Positions 12,077-32,128 of a DNA stretch of 64,000 nt are shown here, one piece after another (within the stretch, counting starts at the first letter, position 1; the number at the start of each line of letters is the position of its first letter). The notes below the pieces were generated by a model. That model did not search any database and was not told the DNA's origin. It saw only the letters and a list, made by a program, of their open reading frames with translations. The DNA comes from an uncultured Nitrososphaerales archaeon. Lineage in GTDB: Archaea; Thermoproteota; Nitrososphaeria; Nitrososphaerales; Gagatemarchaeaceae. A program made the translations under genes and the position numbers. The DNA is taken from the NCBI GenBank assembly GCA_963706445.1, contig OY970160.1, forward strand, positions 288,001 to 352,000, in the 5' to 3' direction.

Positions 12077-12862
12077 TTACCCTATGTATCCGGGCCTCTG
12101 CTCGCGGCTCGGCTGAGGGGTCGTCTCCCTCGCCTGCTCCGCCATGGCCTGAAGCTGGCTGATGACCTTCTGGGTCTCTTCGGCCTTCGCTTCGAGCTTC
12201 GAGGTGTCTAAGGGGAGGTCCACCACCTTGGATAGTGTCTCCAGGACCGCCTTCGACGCCCCGGCGTCGACCACGTACCCCGAGGTCTCGCCGAGCAGGC
12301 ACGCCCCCTCGAGCCCCCGAAGGGCTGCGATCCCTATGAGGACCCCGTTCATGCCGCTAATCCCCCCATCTTTCATCAATGTGGCTCCGTTCTCGGAAAG
12401 CGACTTCACGATATCCTTGGAGGTCCCTGCTCCGAACACCCGCGGAGACTTCGAAAAGTTCCCGGTGATGTATGCCGCCAGGGTGTAGACCTTCTTCACC
12501 CCGCACTTCTTGGCGAACTTCACCACGGCGTCCGACAGCTCGTACTCTCCCTCCGCTGTCGTAGGCTGCGCGTCAGCCGTAAAGACGAAAAGCCCCCGCC
12601 CCCTCTTGACCGAGGCGTAGTACAGCTCCCCTCTCGGCGGGTCCACTGTCCCGTCCTCCTTGACGCTCACCTGCGGTGGAAAGGTCGAGCTCGAATACTC
12701 TGCGACCCGTTTGAGCTTGAACGAGCTGACCAGGTGGTCTGCCGCCAGCTTCCCCACGTATCCGCTCCCGGGGAGCCCGCAGACCAGGACCGGGTTCACA
12801 GCCTTCGGCACGTCAATGACCTTCTCCGAGATTATGGGAACACCTGCTTTTCCGCCCGTCAT
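12077..12862 (-). CDS. PAC2-family proteasome assembly chaperone (PbaB-like)
   Basis: GLPGSGYVGKLAADHL, GISGMNG, CLLGET, C-terminal HbYX-like GYIG. Confidence 0.88.
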   Translation of the reverse strand: MTGGKAGVPIISEKVIDVPKAVNPVLVCGLPGSGYVGKLAADHLVSSFKLKRVAEYSSSTFPPQVSVKEDGTVDPPRGELYYASVKRGRGLFVFTADAQPTTAEGEYELSDAVVKFAKKCGVKKVYTLAAYITGNFSKSPRVFGAGTSKDIVKSLSENGATLMKDGGISGMNGVLIGIAALRGLEGACLLGETSGYVVDAGASKAVLETLSKVVDLPLDTSKLEAKAEETQKVISQLQAMAEQARETTPQPSREQRPGYIG

Positions 12863-13239
12863 TCCTTCTTCCTCCCCAACTTCTCGCTGAGGTCGACCAG
12901 CTTCCCCTGGTCCATGACCTTGATCGAAGTGTTGAGCCTGAACCTCAGCCCAAGCTGCCTGAATATCGAAAGGAGCTCCCCACCCGCAATCTTCTCGGCG
13001 AGCCTCCCGTCCCTGATCATTACCGCAATCTCCTTCATCAGCCTCTCTGTCTCTTCCGGGTAGAACGAATAGGCCGCCTCAAGGACCTCGTCCCCGCGGT
13101 CGTAGAGCATACCCTCGACCACCTGCCTGTCCGTCTTCTCCTGCTTTGCAGAAGGGGGAGCCGCCTTCATCCTCCGCCTGATTGCTTCCAGCTTCCTCTG
13201 CTCCAGCAGCTTCAGGTCCGCGTCCTCTTCCATGGTCAT
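12859..13239 (-). CDS. PDCD5-like double-stranded DNA-binding protein
   Basis: EEDADLKLLEQRKLEAIRR N-terminus and family-like helical core; the upstream part of ORF 12859..13779 is a shadow of eamA. Confidence 0.75.
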   Translation of the reverse strand: MTMEEDADLKLLEQRKLEAIRRRMKAAPPSAKQEKTDRQVVEGMLYDRGDEVLEAAYSFYPEETERLMKEIAVMIRDGRLAEKIAGGELLSIFRQLGLRFRLNTSIKVMDQGKLVDLSEKLGRKKE

Positions 13240-13277
13240 TGTGGCGACCGATTCCTTCGAAATAAAACGATTGCTGA

Positions 13278-14150
13278 CTAATGGTGGCCGCTTGTCGCAA
13301 GGGCCACAGCGACCAGGAGCAACGCACCTCCGGCTATCGTCGCCGCAGCGAGGCTCTCTCCGAGTATCAGCACCCCCCCCACGGCGCTGACGGCAGGCAC
13401 TAGGTAGAGCTGGACCCCCAGCCTTGAGAGCTGGTGCCTGGAGACCAGGGTGAAGAATATCATGTTTGCCAGCACCGTGCTGAGCAGGGCGAGGTATAGG
13501 ACCGAGACCCACCCGTAGGCAGACATGCTCTCCGCCTGCTGGACCAGACTCGGCGAGATGAGCGGGGTTAGGATTGCTGTGCCGAGGAAAGCGGCCCAGG
13601 CCGCCACTGGGAACGGCCCATACTTCATGGCCAGGGGTTTCGAAGCGACTGTGAAAGTACCGCCCGATATCGCGGCGATTACCACGAGGAGCGGACCAGT
13701 CCAACTGGAGCCGCTCAATATCAGGTCTGGAGAGGCGACAAGGACTGAACCCACTATCGCTAGAGCGACCGCCCACCACAGCCTGGACCGGGTCTTTTCG
13801 TGGAGGACTAGGACCGAGAGAAGCACGGTCGTGAGGGGGCCTATGGAGATCAGAAGACCCGCAAGCGACGCGTCCACCTGCACCTCGGCTGTGTTCAGCG
13901 CCAGGTGGTAGATCACGACGCTGGTGAGCGCGACGACGAGGAGCCTAGGGAAGTCTCTTCTTTCGAACTTGGTCTTCGACTTGATTACGAACGGATAGAT
14001 GACAAGGAATCCTGCGCTGACTATGAACCAACGAAGAAGGGTAAGGTTGATCGGGCTTAGTTCGAAGTCTGCGCGCCTAATTGCTACGAACGCCAAGCCC
14101 CAGATGACTGACAGTGTGATCAGAAGGGAGTAGCTCCGAAGGCTGACCAA
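13278..14150 (-). CDS. EamA/DMT family transporter
   Basis: IWGLAFVAIR, about 10 TM segments, LILGE; start placed at TTG 14150. Confidence 0.9.
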   Translation of the reverse strand: MVSLRSYSLLITLSVIWGLAFVAIRRADFELSPINLTLLRWFIVSAGFLVIYPFVIKSKTKFERRDFPRLLVVALTSVVIYHLALNTAEVQVDASLAGLLISIGPLTTVLLSVLVLHEKTRSRLWWAVALAIVGSVLVASPDLILSGSSWTGPLLVVIAAISGGTFTVASKPLAMKYGPFPVAAWAAFLGTAILTPLISPSLVQQAESMSAYGWVSVLYLALLSTVLANMIFFTLVSRHQLSRLGVQLYLVPAVSAVGGVLILGESLAAATIAGGALLLVAVALATSGHH

Positions 14151-14254
14151 CCGAGGTCCGACGGAAAAGTTCGCTTTAAGGGACGCGATTGTAGGTTGAG
14201 GGTATCCGTTGGTCCCAGCAAGCCTATACTCTCCGACTGGATTCAATCTAACAA

Positions 14255-15370
14255 TTGCTCGACCCGCAGGTCTCCCTCGACGAAAATCAAGAGGAACTCC
14301 TCACCCTCCTGCGGACCAAGAACCTGAGCATCAAGTACCTCGACGAGAATAAGAAGGCCGAGCTCAAACAGTTCCTGGACTACCTCCACAACACGAGAGG
14401 CTTGTCCCTCAACGACGTGGCGAAGCTTGTGGGGAACAAGACAAGCGGATACACATCCTGGTTATGCAGGCAGCTGGGGGTTCCGAGACGGCCCTTCGAA
14501 GAAGCCAGGCTAAAGGGGATCAGAGAGAAGAGGAGGAAGCACGAGCGGACGCCCTTCGACGGGACGGACGAGGACAAGGCGTACCTGCTGGGGCTCAGGC
14601 ACGGGGACCTGTCCGTGTACAAACCCTACAATGGCGTTCTGCGCATATCCACGAGCACAACTCATCCTGCCATGGTGCAATTGTTCCGTTCTCTGTTCGA
14701 ACCATACGGACACGTCTACCAAGATCCTCGTTTCAAGAAGGATACAAATTCTTACGAATGGAACACCTATGCTTTCGTAGACGAGAGTTTCGATTTCCTA
14801 TCCCTCACCTTCTCGGACGCTGCGGACTGGATTCTTTCGAAACCTTCGATTACCAAAGCGTACCTAGCAGGATTTCTCGACGCCGAAGGTAGTATCGGGA
14901 TCTATGCGGCTAAGCTGCTAACCAGTGTTAGAATCACTTACTACAATACGAACCTCCCATTGATGAGATTTGTACACACAGCCATAACAAGTCTGGGATT
15001 CCATCCGGTTGAGCCCTACCTTGACAAGAAGAAAGGATTCAGATCGCCTGGCTACCACATTGAAATGAAGAAGGACTATTGGCGGGTCGTCTTGGGTAGA
15101 TTCGCAGAATGTCAGAGGTTCCTCAGAGAGATTCCCACTAGACATTCAGAGAAGATTCGAAAGTGCGAATTGGCTTGTTCGCTAATGCCGATGCATCCCT
15201 GGAAAGACTCTGGACCTAAAATGCAGGAAATCAGAAACTCGATCAAATCCGCCCGGGATCTGTTCGTTGGAGAAGCCGAGAAAACCCACCTTGCCATGCC
15301 GCACAGAAAAGCAACGAGAGAGAAATCAGGCATTGCCTTGGCCGAGCCTCGTGGCGCTACGGCTGTGTGA
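14255..15370 (+). CDS. Free-standing double-motif LAGLIDADG endonuclease-like protein with N-terminal HTH
   Basis: AYLLGLRHGDL and AYLAGFLDAEGS motifs; HTH-like GLSLNDVAKLVG...SWLCRQLGV; AT-richer 3' two-thirds. Confidence 0.85.
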   Translation: MLDPQVSLDENQEELLTLLRTKNLSIKYLDENKKAELKQFLDYLHNTRGLSLNDVAKLVGNKTSGYTSWLCRQLGVPRRPFEEARLKGIREKRRKHERTPFDGTDEDKAYLLGLRHGDLSVYKPYNGVLRISTSTTHPAMVQLFRSLFEPYGHVYQDPRFKKDTNSYEWNTYAFVDESFDFLSLTFSDAADWILSKPSITKAYLAGFLDAEGSIGIYAAKLLTSVRITYYNTNLPLMRFVHTAITSLGFHPVEPYLDKKKGFRSPGYHIEMKKDYWRVVLGRFAECQRFLREIPTRHSEKIRKCELACSLMPMHPWKDSGPKMQEIRNSIKSARDLFVGEAEKTHLAMPHRKATREKSGIALAEPRGATAV

Positions 15371-15785
15371 TTTTGATACTGAGCGTCGGGCACGAAGTCT
15401 CACATGCCATGCAGAAGATACAGTCCATCTCCCTTACGGGCTCGGACTTGTCGCTTCTGTACTGGTCCCAATCTGGCGTCCCCTGCTCGACGACCTTGTC
15501 TTTGCCTGTCCCGGCCTGACCTGGGTTCAGCTGCCACTCGAATACGAATACCGGGCAGACGTCCATGCAGACCCCATCCGCTACGCACGACTCCCAGTCG
15601 ATGGCTACCTGGGTCCCGTGAATCCCATTCGTGGTAGGATAGGGCTTCCCTTCTCCGTCCATCCTGGCCGTCCCCTGGGCCCTTACCTTGTGCCCGGCGT
15701 GCTCGCCGGTGATAGGGAACTGGTCCGGCTTCGACAGAAACGCCGGGTCTATCGGCGCTGATTTGTAGCCTACATCACGAGTCAA
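15357..15785 (-). CDS. zfx: Zinc-containing (Zfx-type) dicluster ferredoxin
   Basis: IDP..GEHAGHKV..GIHGT His ligands, CVADGVC..CP and CIFCMACETSCP. Confidence 0.88.
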   Translation of the reverse strand: MTRDVGYKSAPIDPAFLSKPDQFPITGEHAGHKVRAQGTARMDGEGKPYPTTNGIHGTQVAIDWESCVADGVCMDVCPVFVFEWQLNPGQAGTGKDKVVEQGTPDWDQYRSDKSEPVREMDCIFCMACETSCPTLSIKITQP

Positions 15786-15822
15786 TGTGTTGGACTTGCG
15801 TCTCCGTCAGGTGGTTATAAGT

Positions 15823-16515
15823 TTAGTCGTCTCTTTTCAGGACTTCGAACTTTCCATCGGGCCTTAGCTTGTAAACGGTGATCGGTTTGAAGGTGAAGAT
15901 CCCCACCTCAGCCACACCGGGGGTCGACTTCACAGTCATCTCCAACCCTCGCGGGTCTTTGATGGGCTCGAATAATGTGTCGAGCATTATGTTACCATTC
16001 TCTGTAAAATACGGATACCCCTTCGGCATCAGCCTCTGATCAGGTACTCCTCCGAGCATCGACAGCTTCACCTTCGCGCTCTCCCTGGCGATTGGGTAGA
16101 CCTCCACGGGGACCCTGACCCCGTTCTCGCCGAGCTTCGACACGAACTTGTTCTCGGCAGCTACGACCGCCACGCTCCTGGCGCTCCCCATGACCACCTT
16201 CTCCTTCAGAAGAGCCCCTCCTCCCCCCTTCATGAGGTTGAGCTCAGAGTCCACCTGGTCCGCACCGTCTACAACCAGGTCCACCGACCCCCTGAACGGG
16301 ACGAGGTTGATACCGCACTTGCTGGCTACGAGTTCGATCTGTGTCGATGTCGCGACCCCGTTGATGGCTTTCCCTTTAGCGATGACCAGGGGGGAAAGCT
16401 CCTCCAACAGCATGGCGACCGTGGACCCGCTCCCGAGCCCCATGGTGGTGCCCGAGCCTATGGTCTTGGCAAGCTCCCTGGCTACACCCTTCAGAGCCTC
16501 CCTGATTCGGTCCAT
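15823..16515 (-). CDS. rpiA: Ribose-5-phosphate isomerase A
   Basis: GLGSGST, DGADQVD, KGGGGALLKEK. Confidence 0.95.
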   Translation of the reverse strand: MDRIREALKGVARELAKTIGSGTTMGLGSGSTVAMLLEELSPLVIAKGKAINGVATSTQIELVASKCGINLVPFRGSVDLVVDGADQVDSELNLMKGGGGALLKEKVVMGSARSVAVVAAENKFVSKLGENGVRVPVEVYPIARESAKVKLSMLGGVPDQRLMPKGYPYFTENGNIMLDTLFEPIKDPRGLEMTVKSTPGVAEVGIFTFKPITVYKLRPDGKFEVLKRDD

Positions 16516-17177
16516 CAGTTTTCCTGCTGCTTCTTCTCCATGTCTATCTGTTCTAAGCGCGCCAGCTCTCCCATCACGTCGTCCATAATCTCCTTCCTCC
16601 GCTTCTCCGACTCTGTCATCTCGGTCTTTGCCTTCCTCTCGACCGCCTTCTCGAGCTCGGCGCCGCGGTCGGCCTTCGGGGCTGCCTCCTTCTTCGCTGG
16701 TGCCGGGGCGGCGGGTCCGAGCCTCTCCCGGGCCACATCGAGCCTCGCCTCTATGTTCTGGATCTTGCCTTCGAAAAGAGAAATCAGGTCGTTCCTCAGG
16801 CCCTCCAGCTCACCCACCTCCACGACAAGCTCCACGTCCTTCAGCTTCGACTGGAGGTCCTTTATCTGGTCGCTGTAGCGCTTCGATATCATCTCCCTCT
16901 CCTCCTTTGTGATCCTTCCCTCTGTCTCTGCCTCGTAGAGCTTCATCATTGCCGACGAGAGCAGGTCCCTCTCCACCATTACGGTCCGCATCTCTCTCCT
17001 CGAGCGCTCCAGGTCGGTCGAGGTGACGGTGGATTCCTTTGCCCTTGGACTGGATTCCGCCCGGGGGACCGCGACCTTCTCAGACTTTGGACGCGAGTAG
17101 TACACGTAGCGGGCGACGACACCACCTAGGCCGAGGCCTACGGCCAAAGCGACTACGGCAGTCAGAACATCGACCAT
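16515..17177 (-). CDS. Hypothetical membrane-anchored coiled-coil protein
   Basis: N-terminal TM, long heptad-rich helices, host-like codon usage; stop overlaps the rpiA start. Confidence 0.75.
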   Translation of the reverse strand: MVDVLTAVVALAVGLGLGGVVARYVYYSRPKSEKVAVPRAESSPRAKESTVTSTDLERSRREMRTVMVERDLLSSAMMKLYEAETEGRITKEEREMISKRYSDQIKDLQSKLKDVELVVEVGELEGLRNDLISLFEGKIQNIEARLDVARERLGPAAPAPAKKEAAPKADRGAELEKAVERKAKTEMTESEKRRKEIMDDVMGELARLEQIDMEKKQQEN

Positions 17178-17238
17178 GTAGGTGATTCCTGCCCGTGCTC
17201 CAGGGCCTTCGATATAAAAGTAGGATTCCTGTGTTTTA

Positions 17239-17469
17239 TCAGCCTGGCGGCGGAGAGATCATGATGATGTTGTCCCCGCGGACGATGAGCGTCCCCAACG
17301 ACGTCGAGGCGCCGTCCTCGGTGACCTCCTCTGCCTTCTCTAGCGAGAGGTTCATGTGCTGGTCGAAGCCCTGAAGGTTCCCCCTGATCACTTTCCCTCC
17401 CTTAAGCTTGATTAGTACGACCTTCCCCATGCTCGTCTCGAGCTCCTTGACAGCCATGTCTGCTGACAA
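17239..17469 (-). CDS. Sm-like archaeal protein (SmAP/Lsm)
   Basis: GNLQGFDQHMNLSL and IVRGDNII Sm1/Sm2 motifs. Confidence 0.95.
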   Translation of the reverse strand: MSADMAVKELETSMGKVVLIKLKGGKVIRGNLQGFDQHMNLSLEKAEEVTEDGASTSLGTLIVRGDNIIMISPPPG

Positions 17470-17531
17470 TCGAATTCCTTGTGCCGGCCTCTCGAATTGA
17501 TTTATTTAAGGAGTCATACATCTCTTGGCAG

Positions 17532-30124: not shown

Positions 30125-32128
30125 CTACTTGCCTTTGAACTCCGGTCTCCTCTTCCCCAGGAACGCAGAGACCCCCTCCTTCAGGTCTTCGGTCCCGAAT
30201 ACAACGCCCGCAGCCATCGCCTCCATCTCCAGACCGACGTCTGTGGTGGTCTCCGCTCCTCTGTTCAGAAGCTTCTTCGCGAGCATCGTCGCCACCGGGG
30301 CCTGAGTCGACGCGAGTTCCCTCGCGTAGTTCACCGCGTCCCCATCGGGGTCCTTCGCAGAAACGAGCCGGTTGACGAGCCCTATCTCGTAGGCGCGTTT
30401 CCCCTTGATCCTCTCCCCCGTCAGGATCATCGAGCTCGCATGCGACACACCCAGCAGCTGTGGCAGCCTCTGGCTCCCTGACCATGCGGGTATCAGACCC
30501 CTGGACAGCTCTGGGAATCCTATCTCCACGTCTTCGGTACCAAGTCTGAGGTCGCAGGAAATTGCGAGCTCTAGCCCGCCTCCCAACGTGTACCCCTTGA
30601 GCACGGCGATGGTGAGCTTGGGCACGTCGCCGAGCTTCCTGAGAGTCCTTGCCCCCTTTCTGGCGAACTCCATGAATGAAACGGCGTTGCTGTAGTATTG
30701 CGAGAGGTCTGCCCCAGCGGAGAAGACCGACCCCTCTCCGGTGACGAGTACCACCCTGACCTCGTTGTCCGCGCTCAGCTCATCGGCGATGCGATCAAGG
30801 CTGTTCAGCACTTCTGCGTTGATCAGGTTCAGGCGCGGGCGGTTGAGAACAATCCTAGCTACGCCCCCCGCGAGCCTCTCGAAACGCACTACCTCTGCGC
30901 CACTCTGATCGGCCGATCGGACCCTCGGCTCCGCGGGGGCGCCTGGTGCCGGCGTGGCGCCTGGAGGTGAGAGCCTGCCTTCGATGGCGTCGCGGAGTTT
31001 GCCTTCAGCGATCGACTTCGCGGGGGCGAAGACCTTGCAATCGTACTTCGAAGCGAGCTCTTCTAGCTTCGACTTCACCTCGGCATTGCTCAGGTCCTTG
31101 GCTACCGCTATGGGGCCGAATGGCCGGTTCATCCCCAGGGTCACCCCCTTCTCGATGTCTCCCGGAGTCGCCACTCCCTCCTCTATGAGCTTGACCGCCT
31201 CATTGATCTCGAGTGCGAATATGTCCATGATGGTGACCTTCTCGGTGGCGGGGGCGGCAGGAATCTGCGCCCTCCCTGTGGACCAGTCATAGAACCCCCT
31301 CCCCGTCTTCTTTCCGAGCCTCCCCTCCTTCGCCATCAGCGCGAACGTCTTCCCTTTCCCGTATTCGGGGGAGAGCGCCTGGGAGAAGTATGCCAGCGAG
31401 TCTGCTCCAATGTCGACCCCGACGAAGTCGAGGAGCTCGTAGGGTCCCATGGGGAGCCCCTGGGCCTTCGCGAAGCTGTCGACCTCCGCGGGAGTCGCGA
31501 CTCCCTTGTCCATTATCAGGCAGAAGAACAGGGTGTCGGCTGCGTTAATCCTGTTAACTATGAACCCGGGGCTGTCCTTGGCGACCTTCACCGCGGTCCT
31601 CCCCAGCTTAGCGCTCACCTCCATCATCGTCTGTACGACCGCCGGGTCTGTCTTGGAGCCGGGAATCACCTCGACGAGTTTTATCAGCATAGGCGGGTTG
31701 AAGAAGTGCAAACCCACCATCCGCTCGGGCCTGTCGGTGGCGGATGCCAGGTCAGATATCCTGATGTTCGAGGTGTTGGACGCCAAAATCGCGTCCCTTG
31801 GCGCGATGGCACTTGCCTCCTTGAATACAGACTTCTTGAGCTCGATGGACTCGGGGACTGCCTCCACTATCAGGTCGGCGTCTGACACCGCCTTGTCCAT
31901 GGACTCGAAGTACGCCAGTCTTGACAGCGCGGCGGCCGAGTCTTCCTTGGTTATCTTCCCCTTCTCGACGAGCTTGTCGAGGCTCGCCCCGATTCTCCCC
32001 TTCGCCTTCTCCAACATCGCAGGGAACTTATCAGTCACCCTGACGTCGTAGCCGCTGACGGCAAAGAGCTCTGCGATGCCGTGCCCCATGTCCCCGGCGC
32101 CTATGACGGCGACCTTCCTGATCTCCAC
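30125..32128 (-). CDS. Fused 3-hydroxyacyl-CoA dehydrogenase / enoyl-CoA hydratase
   Basis: GAGDMG, SNTS, HFFNP, GFIVNR; crotonase FSAGADL, GGGLE, PELSRG. Confidence 0.95.
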   Translation of the reverse strand: MEIRKVAVIGAGDMGHGIAELFAVSGYDVRVTDKFPAMLEKAKGRIGASLDKLVEKGKITKEDSAAALSRLAYFESMDKAVSDADLIVEAVPESIELKKSVFKEASAIAPRDAILASNTSNIRISDLASATDRPERMVGLHFFNPPMLIKLVEVIPGSKTDPAVVQTMMEVSAKLGRTAVKVAKDSPGFIVNRINAADTLFFCLIMDKGVATPAEVDSFAKAQGLPMGPYELLDFVGVDIGADSLAYFSQALSPEYGKGKTFALMAKEGRLGKKTGRGFYDWSTGRAQIPAAPATEKVTIMDIFALEINEAVKLIEEGVATPGDIEKGVTLGMNRPFGPIAVAKDLSNAEVKSKLEELASKYDCKVFAPAKSIAEGKLRDAIEGRLSPPGATPAPGAPAEPRVRSADQSGAEVVRFERLAGGVARIVLNRPRLNLINAEVLNSLDRIADELSADNEVRVVLVTGEGSVFSAGADLSQYYSNAVSFMEFARKGARTLRKLGDVPKLTIAVLKGYTLGGGLELAISCDLRLGTEDVEIGFPELSRGLIPAWSGSQRLPQLLGVSHASSMILTGERIKGKRAYEIGLVNRLVSAKDPDGDAVNYARELASTQAPVATMLAKKLLNRGAETTTDVGLEMEAMAAGVVFGTEDLKEGVSAFLGKRRPEFKGK

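Follow-up and report, generated by a model that had tools for sequence, protein, structure and literature searches.

Homing endonucleases encoded by free-standing genes have been studied in depth in phages and organelles but, to our knowledge, are hardly documented in the chromosomes of cellular archaea. The phage enzymes (T4 SegF, mobE and others) are reported to be of the GIY-YIG or HNH type, to cut inside the neighboring gene and to co-convert flanking markers (PMC2790892; PMC5867893, citing Belle et al. 2002). Free-standing LAGLIDADG genes of the LAGLIDADG_2 type (PF03161) were reported from variable glycosylation islands of Haloferax and not analyzed further there (PMC5867893). [quoted passage not shown]

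The window, i.e., the whole stretch of 64,000 nucleotides that was analyzed, comes from an uncultured Nitrososphaerales archaeon. Directly after the stop codon of the ferredoxin gene zfx, at a site that is fixed among carriers, it contains a solitary 1.1-kb gene, which we interpret as a putative selfish, free-standing LAGLIDADG endonuclease gene of the homing type, with a probability of roughly 0.58. The features of the locus are as follows.

14255..15370, plus strand: free-standing HTH and double-LAGLIDADG gene, 371 aa (ORF, Pfam, own-genome search, AF2 and fold matches)
14255..14554, plus strand: N-terminal helical, HTH-like module and basic linker (residues 1-100), the most conserved part, GC3-rich
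14579..14614, plus strand: LAGLIDADG motif 1 (residues 109-120, ..LLGLRHGDL..), predicted catalytic Asp118 at 14606-14608
14858..14893, plus strand: LAGLIDADG motif 2 (residues 202-213, ..LAGFLDAEGS..), predicted catalytic Glu211 at 14885-14887
14630..15370, plus strand: low-GC, fast-evolving part (rest of domain 1, domain 2 and C-terminal helices), of "type A" from about residue 160-200 onward
15357..15370, no strand: 14-nt overlap of two convergent frames, the nuclease and zfx ORFs
15357..15785, minus strand: zfx, zinc-ferredoxin-type 2x[4Fe-4S] ferredoxin, convergent neighbor (NCBIfam ZFX_Thplmales, Pfam Fer4)
13278..14246, minus strand: eamA-family transporter, divergent neighbor (Pfam EamA, E=1.4e-34)

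The nuclease gene and its predicted protein

The nuclease ORF begins with TTG, with a TAA stop codon 3 nt upstream, and is single copy in its own genome, a single 1.82-Mb contig that yielded one match. LAGLIDADG_3 was its sole Pfam domain (23.7 bits), and no NCBIfam family matched. The gene lacks the marks of an intein-encoded endonuclease, as the first-pass annotation had it: Pfam detected no Hint/intein domain, a stop codon lies upstream of the start, and both neighbors are full length in carriers and non-carriers of the gene. An Rfam search of 12500-17500 (E <= 0.1) was empty, indicating that this interval holds no intron and no RNA gene. No target duplication around the gene was found in a repeat search, and one 12-nt inverted repeat (14975-14986 / 15358-15369) is no more than chance would give, about 4 being expected in 2 kb by our estimate.

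The end of the gene had been placed at 15460. It actually lies at 15370, the extra stretch being the zfx tail; the 14-nt overlap with zfx reported along with it stands (15357-15370). Six orthologues overlap zfx (those of G020/G048, G011, G058 and G043 among them), and eight others end 4-47 nt short of it. The overlapping nuclease frame continues to a TGA that is the antisense of a conserved ..ATCA.. sequence of zfx. The overlap is incidental.

Two LAGLIDADG motifs with retained acidic residues had been recognized by the first-pass annotation, and we could assign these residues to D118 and E211, invariant across 57 homologues. Among the 14 intact orthologues of the genus, D118 is kept in all, and the position of E211 is occupied by Glu except for an Asp in G043. 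A profile search of the PDB gave marginal matches at motif 2 only, aligning it with the ..EAEG.. motif of I-AniI and I-HjeMI (E=0.014), and a PDB search with the single sequence returned no match at E <= 1. The conserved basic residues beside the active site of I-DmoI are K42/K43 and K120/K130. In the orthologue alignment of the nuclease, K123 is not conserved and R130 (R or K), in the beta2 strand, is.

The AF2 model of the protein, built with 57 homologues, has a pLDDT of 90.7. Residues 99-330 adopt a monomeric double-LAGLIDADG fold in this model, with helices at 105-117 and 197-211 and beta hairpins after each. Foldseek matched the model to I-HjeMI, bI3 maturase, I-AniI, I-DmoI and I-OnuI, and VIA-align gave Z scores of 16.4 for PI-PfuI, 16.2 for E-DreI, 15.5 for I-Tsp061I, 15.1 for I-DmoI and 13.6-14.0 for WhiA. 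As WhiA nearly ties with the nucleases, the fold alone does not discriminate between a nuclease and a WhiA-like regulator. The two are told apart by the acidic residues, which WhiA lacks (PMC3384342) and which are invariant here. The model is thus consistent with a monomeric two-domain LAGLIDADG enzyme of the I-DmoI / PI-PfuI type, extended by an N-terminal HTH-like module.

In its N-terminal module the model has five helices (10-20, 31-47, 52-59, 65-74 and 80-96). Residues 10-96 folded alone (pLDDT 82) matched HTH DNA-binding domains exclusively, all of them weakly (Z <= 5), and Pfam HTH_31 was found at E=0.13. Leads from the Atlas for this module were HTH_23/HTH_7 modules of phage homing endonucleases. 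The N-terminal HTH claimed at first pass is thus backed by the helices and the fold matches, and the weakness of these matches leaves it plausible but weak as a prediction.

Residues 60-110 are 80-100% identical among orthologues. In the closest pair, G060/G018, dN/dS is 0.22 for the N-terminal part and 0.13 for the C-terminal part, showing that the predicted protein is under purifying selection. The wider nuclease family comprises 726 representatives (50% clustering, E <= 1e-3).

Patchy presence, decay and a mosaic history

The homologues are named Nitrososphaerota or Nitrososphaerales, and the gene is contained in peat and soil metagenomes. Sixteen other families of the order, represented by one genome each, gave no match, and the best outside match has 77% identity. 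Within the genus, 50 of 55 genomes hold zfx, and 48 zfx loci were inspected. They follow the order dsDNA-binding gene, eamA, nuclease, zfx, rpiA, orf220, in which eamA and the nuclease are optional, giving four configurations. The nuclease is found in 18 of the 48 loci (about 40% of the genus genomes), at one spot and always convergent with zfx; among all carriers its stop reaches up to 14 nt into zfx or falls up to 47 nt short of it. Fourteen copies are intact, those of G041 (2), G005 (1) and G047 (1) are frameshifted, and that of G059 is cut by a contig end.

The comparison of the eamA-zfx locus among relatives, suggested at first pass as a check, thus revealed presence and absence, even between sister genomes (G007/G002, G061/G019 and G043/G006). 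On a flank tree of rpiA, orf220 and zfx, presence of the nuclease changes at least 10 times, at least 8 of them on well-supported branches. Homology between carriers and non-carriers stops at the zfx stop codon and restarts at the next gene. Non-carrier spacers are mutually unrelated, so a target spanning the junction would hold one conserved half only.

Most empty sites bear no trace of the nuclease. In the spacer of G046 a scar is left, with the 5' leader and some 22 codons from the end of the gene (tblastn E=3e-4; DNA z=4.2), which points to loss through internal deletion, and weaker traces are present in the spacers of G022 and G051. Presence or absence at one homologous site, with decayed copies among the carriers, is the pattern that characterizes a mobile homing element. 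An apparent remnant seen by eye in the G002 spacer was not above shuffled controls (z=-1.0).

The nuclease phylogeny is incompatible with the deep split seen in the flanks (lnL difference 214, AU p=4e-11), and also with a clade formed by G000, the genome of the window, and G060, G018 and G061 (p=2e-5). The tree of eamA is near-congruent with the flanks (lnL difference 7.3, AU p=0.04), so this gene can serve as a control for that of the nuclease. A distal marker (667 aa, 15 kb away) ranks the relatives as the flanks do, with G041, G052, G017 and G061 at 74-77% and G001 at ~70%. The nuclease is closest to that of G001 (70%), and merely 54-57% identical to those of G052 and G061. The history of the nuclease part differs from that of both flanks, as expected of a mobile homing element. 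Together, the fixed insertion point, the patchiness, the decayed copies and the deviant tree show the marks of a mobile or selfish gene, and the homing kind of element proposed at first pass is borne out to this extent.

The distal marker (30125-32128) has a 65-77% orthologue in most of the genus. Its best full-length match is ~37% in G043, G013 and G003, with a partial match of 37-38% in G004 and G021, which suggests that the orthologue was replaced or lost in the clade of these five genomes.

The gene is heterogeneous in composition. The GC content is 0.46-0.48 at 14650-15250 and ~0.60 around it, and GC3 falls from 0.84 in the first 125 codons to 0.54 in the rest, a break shared by 14 of 14 orthologues (0.72-0.91 in the first ~116 aligned codons, 0.54-0.70 in the rest). 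GC3 of the N-terminal module, residues 1-100, is 0.83-0.91. Phylogenetic signal is likewise partitioned. The flank split is compatible with the N-terminal part (AU p=0.29), which rejects a split into two groups, A and B, that were named only after the C-part tree had been seen (p=1.5e-4). The flank split is rejected by domain 1 (p=0.002) and by domain 2 (p=4e-23), and the C-terminal part rejects the sister pair G011+G043 of the N-part tree (p=2.6e-7).

In sliding windows, GC3 drops at residues 125-135 and the nearest relative switches at residues 160-200, indicating that the exchanged part is mainly the second LAGLIDADG domain. By these comparisons the nuclease is a mosaic, whose domain 2 occurs in two deep types, A and B, exchanged between lineages. 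The sampled paralogues, at 25-32% identity, were ruled out as donors of these types. Synonymous sites are saturated between types, and those of the C-terminal part are saturated in all pairs but the closest, which precludes dating of transfers. Any transfers would be old, given this saturation and the lack of near-identical copies in divergent genomes.

Neighboring genes, paralogues and transcription

A recoded, cleavage-resistant zfx end and co-conversion of the neighboring gene had been proposed on the basis of an apparent excess of A/T-ending codons at the end of zfx. The last 21 codons of zfx contain 7 such codons, compared with 5.4 expected from the synonymous usage of the genome (p=0.28; reference of long ORFs, GC3 0.75), and the remaining codons contain 29, compared with 29.7 expected. 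There is thus no codon excess to explain. The last 20 residues of Zfx are near-invariant in all genomes, and synonymous sites there are variable whether or not a genome carries the nuclease. By alignment column, the last 33 nt are the part of zfx least associated with nuclease presence, at 0.072 per unit of diversity. An excess of divergence near the junction, for which the other check suggested at first pass looks, did not materialize either: divergence over the last 57 nt of zfx is 0.202 between carriers and non-carriers, and 0.202 and 0.195 within the groups. The nearest neighbors of zfx track the flanks and not the nuclease type.

The genus-wide comparison of zfx thus revealed no co-conversion tract and no carrier-specific allele. 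The two hallmarks of SegF-type intronless homing, co-conversion and a resistant neighboring allele, are absent, and as zfx is not recoded, the "resistant allele" model is inapplicable here. In the pair G061/G019, zfx divergence exceeds that of rpiA, which was considered as possible co-conversion; the non-carrier pair G019/G017 is just as divergent, so the excess is not linked to the nuclease.

zfx is complete, at 142 aa, in 50 of the 50 genus genomes that have it. The copy in the window scores 232.7 bits against ZFX_Thplmales, under the cut-off of 280. Second or third zfx copies, at 63-77% identity, occur in G005, G008, G050, G051, G053 and G067, with three copies in G005 (2.9 Mb, 7% contamination); these may be real paralogues or mixed bins.

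On the other side of the nuclease, eamA is itself patchy in the genus, with at least 6 changes on the tree, making the spacer indel-prone in its own right. Its relatives align only from residue ~20-31 of the ORF 13278-14246 (loci L021-L065), so the true start probably lies downstream of the TTG at 14246. The nuclease gene would then be preceded by a genuine spacer for divergent promoters. The 306-aa ORF at 12859-13779 is over-extended as well: only its last ~163 residues (12859-13350) match the dsDNA-binding (PF01984) family and the corresponding proteins of other genomes.

Paralogues, whose position the first-pass annotation had suggested checking, do sit beside conserved genes. Those with ~30% identity, HTH-LAGLIDADG genes as well, run convergently toward either sod, whose 3' end they overlap by 26 nt (G002 and G007; L009:1468-2547 and L019), or nuoD, to whose 3' end they leave 34-81 nt (G003, G019 and G001; L011, L015 and L020). 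One paralogue subfamily lies upstream of a class I Tyr/Trp-type (PF00579) tRNA synthetase gene. The genome of the window has neither the sod-linked nor the nuoD-linked paralogue.

Three peat metatranscriptome runs from one study yielded contigs with at least 99% identity to 14392-14545, 14589-14738, 15016-15243 and zfx; such Logan contigs are blind to strand and expression level. In these three runs eamA had no matching contig, which carries no weight, as for any part of the locus that lacks RNA contigs. The contigs on the nuclease gene hint weakly at its transcription. In the best-matching peat metagenome (run X1), contigs break at 14765/14768 and 15099-15268 is uncovered, both in the variable C-terminal part; this could reflect co-existing population variants, or merely assembly.

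Candidate explanations and comparison with known systems

The homing-type interpretation draws on the fold and active site, the fixed site with patchy presence, the decay and loss, the horizontal history, the selection on the protein, the habit of the paralogues and, weakly, the hint of transcription. The enzyme would cut a site of ~20 bp at or across the junction between the zfx 3' end and the spacer in genomes without the gene, and repair off carrier DNA would copy the gene into the cut site. Occupied sites would be safe, probably because insertion splits the site, rather than through recoding of zfx. The gene would then cycle through fixation, decay and loss, and one half-site may be retuned when lineages swap type A and type B versions of their second LAGLIDADG domain. 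The proposal of the first-pass annotation that the target is the Cys-motif-coding DNA of zfx is purely conjectural.

Against homing, near-identical copies are absent from divergent genomes and zfx carries no co-conversion tract. In addition, the N-terminal third is compatible with vertical descent, and its GC3 equals or exceeds that of the host, which would suit a gene that has been resident for long and may serve the host. The mutually unrelated spacers of non-carriers and the patchiness of eamA weigh in the same direction. We also know of no route by which cells of these archaea would exchange DNA, and count this against homing too.

A domesticated LAGLIDADG protein with a host function, whose patchiness would reflect dispensability and repeated loss, is an unlikely alternative but one with substance. 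It could be a WhiA-like transcription factor, whose HTH would bind DNA near zfx, or an HO-like nuclease used by the cell. The highly conserved N-terminal module, with a GC3 above the genome mean and compatible with vertical descent, would suit such a role, as would the purifying selection, the strictly syntenic position, the near-tied structural match to WhiA (Z 13.6-14.0) and the lack of visible recent transfer. However, both catalytic acidic residues, lost in WhiA (PMC3384342), are invariant, the HTH is N-terminal and not C-terminal, the nuclease domains have a horizontal history, and more than 60% of the genus, sister species included, either lacks the gene or has a broken copy. The paralogues, moreover, likewise sit behind other conserved genes. 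The locus thus departs from WhiA / DUF199 in all three of its traits, i.e., loss of the acidic residues, C-terminal HTH and universality. The WhiA-like regulator considered at first pass retains the support of the fold and is weakened by the acidic residues, the N-terminal HTH and the ~60% absence.

A nuclease engaged in conflict with foreign DNA (of viruses or of related strains), with domain-2 types maintained by diversifying or frequency-dependent selection, seems improbable. The two deep domain-2 types found across lineages and the low-GC, fast-evolving nature of the variable part would suit it, and a role in conflict was posed as an open question for the free-standing endonucleases of Haloferax (PMC5867893). 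However, the neighbors are housekeeping genes and form no defense island, none of 27 pattern matches in viral contigs was confirmed as a relative with this query, and the fixed position behind one conserved gene, echoed by the paralogues, fits site-specific insertion better.

It is equally improbable that the gene is an inert passenger, i.e., an accessory ORF for an inactive nuclease in an indel-prone spacer, with the tree conflict arising only from interspecies homologous recombination. A dN/dS of 0.13-0.22 and catalytic residues that stay invariant across deep divergence speak for a functional protein, and the eamA tree is near-congruent whereas that of the nuclease is not. In favor of a passenger, eamA is also present or absent in the same spacer, several nuclease copies are broken and zfx lacks co-conversion.

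Tentatively and with rather low confidence, the homing-type interpretation can be broadened to a whole family of free-standing homing endonucleases encoded on the chromosomes of Nitrososphaerota from soil and peat. Each subfamily would have a housekeeping gene of its own (zfx, sod or nuoD), after whose stop codon it resides, and the genes would persist by modular exchange. A GC-rich module of HTH and first motif and the host gene would bracket a swappable second LAGLIDADG domain, and a swapped domain would reset half-site specificity. If this is true, the genes are a footprint of interspecies DNA exchange. We know of no description of such exchange in this lineage.

Within one genus, the locus offers a series of intact, frameshifted, deleted and empty states with two exchanged domain types, which could be used to test the cycle of invasion, decay and loss and the retargeting of LAGLIDADG enzymes by domain swap. 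An active enzyme would imply recombination between species of uncultured soil Nitrososphaerota, and would enrich the meganuclease repertoire with thermally moderate, HTH-tethered scaffolds.

Among described enzymes, I-DmoI, I-Tsp061I and the endonuclease domain of PI-PfuI likewise have one acidic residue closing each motif. In contrast to these, which are encoded inside rRNA introns or inteins, the zfx-linked gene stands alone in a spacer, and its product has an extra N-terminal HTH-like module of ~100 residues, a long C-terminal helix and only 13-18% identity with them. With WhiA the predicted protein shares a LAGLIDADG scaffold fused to an HTH, and it differs in its invariant acidic residues, the N-terminal placement of the HTH and the patchiness of its gene (18 of 48 loci). 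The resemblance to SegF and mobE lies in a stand-alone gene between conserved genes, present or absent in relatives, with an extra HTH-type module, whereas the zfx-linked gene is of the LAGLIDADG type, resides in a cellular archaeal chromosome and has a neighbor without co-conversion or resistant allele. The Haloferax genes are the other archaeal chromosomal LAGLIDADG genes outside an intron or intein; unlike them, the zfx-linked gene combines LAGLIDADG_3 with an HTH, has a fixed site behind a housekeeping gene and could be compared genus-wide. As free-standing archaeal LAGLIDADG genes have been mentioned before (PMC5867893), the kind is already known, and what distinguishes the zfx-linked gene is an unusually clear comparative record.
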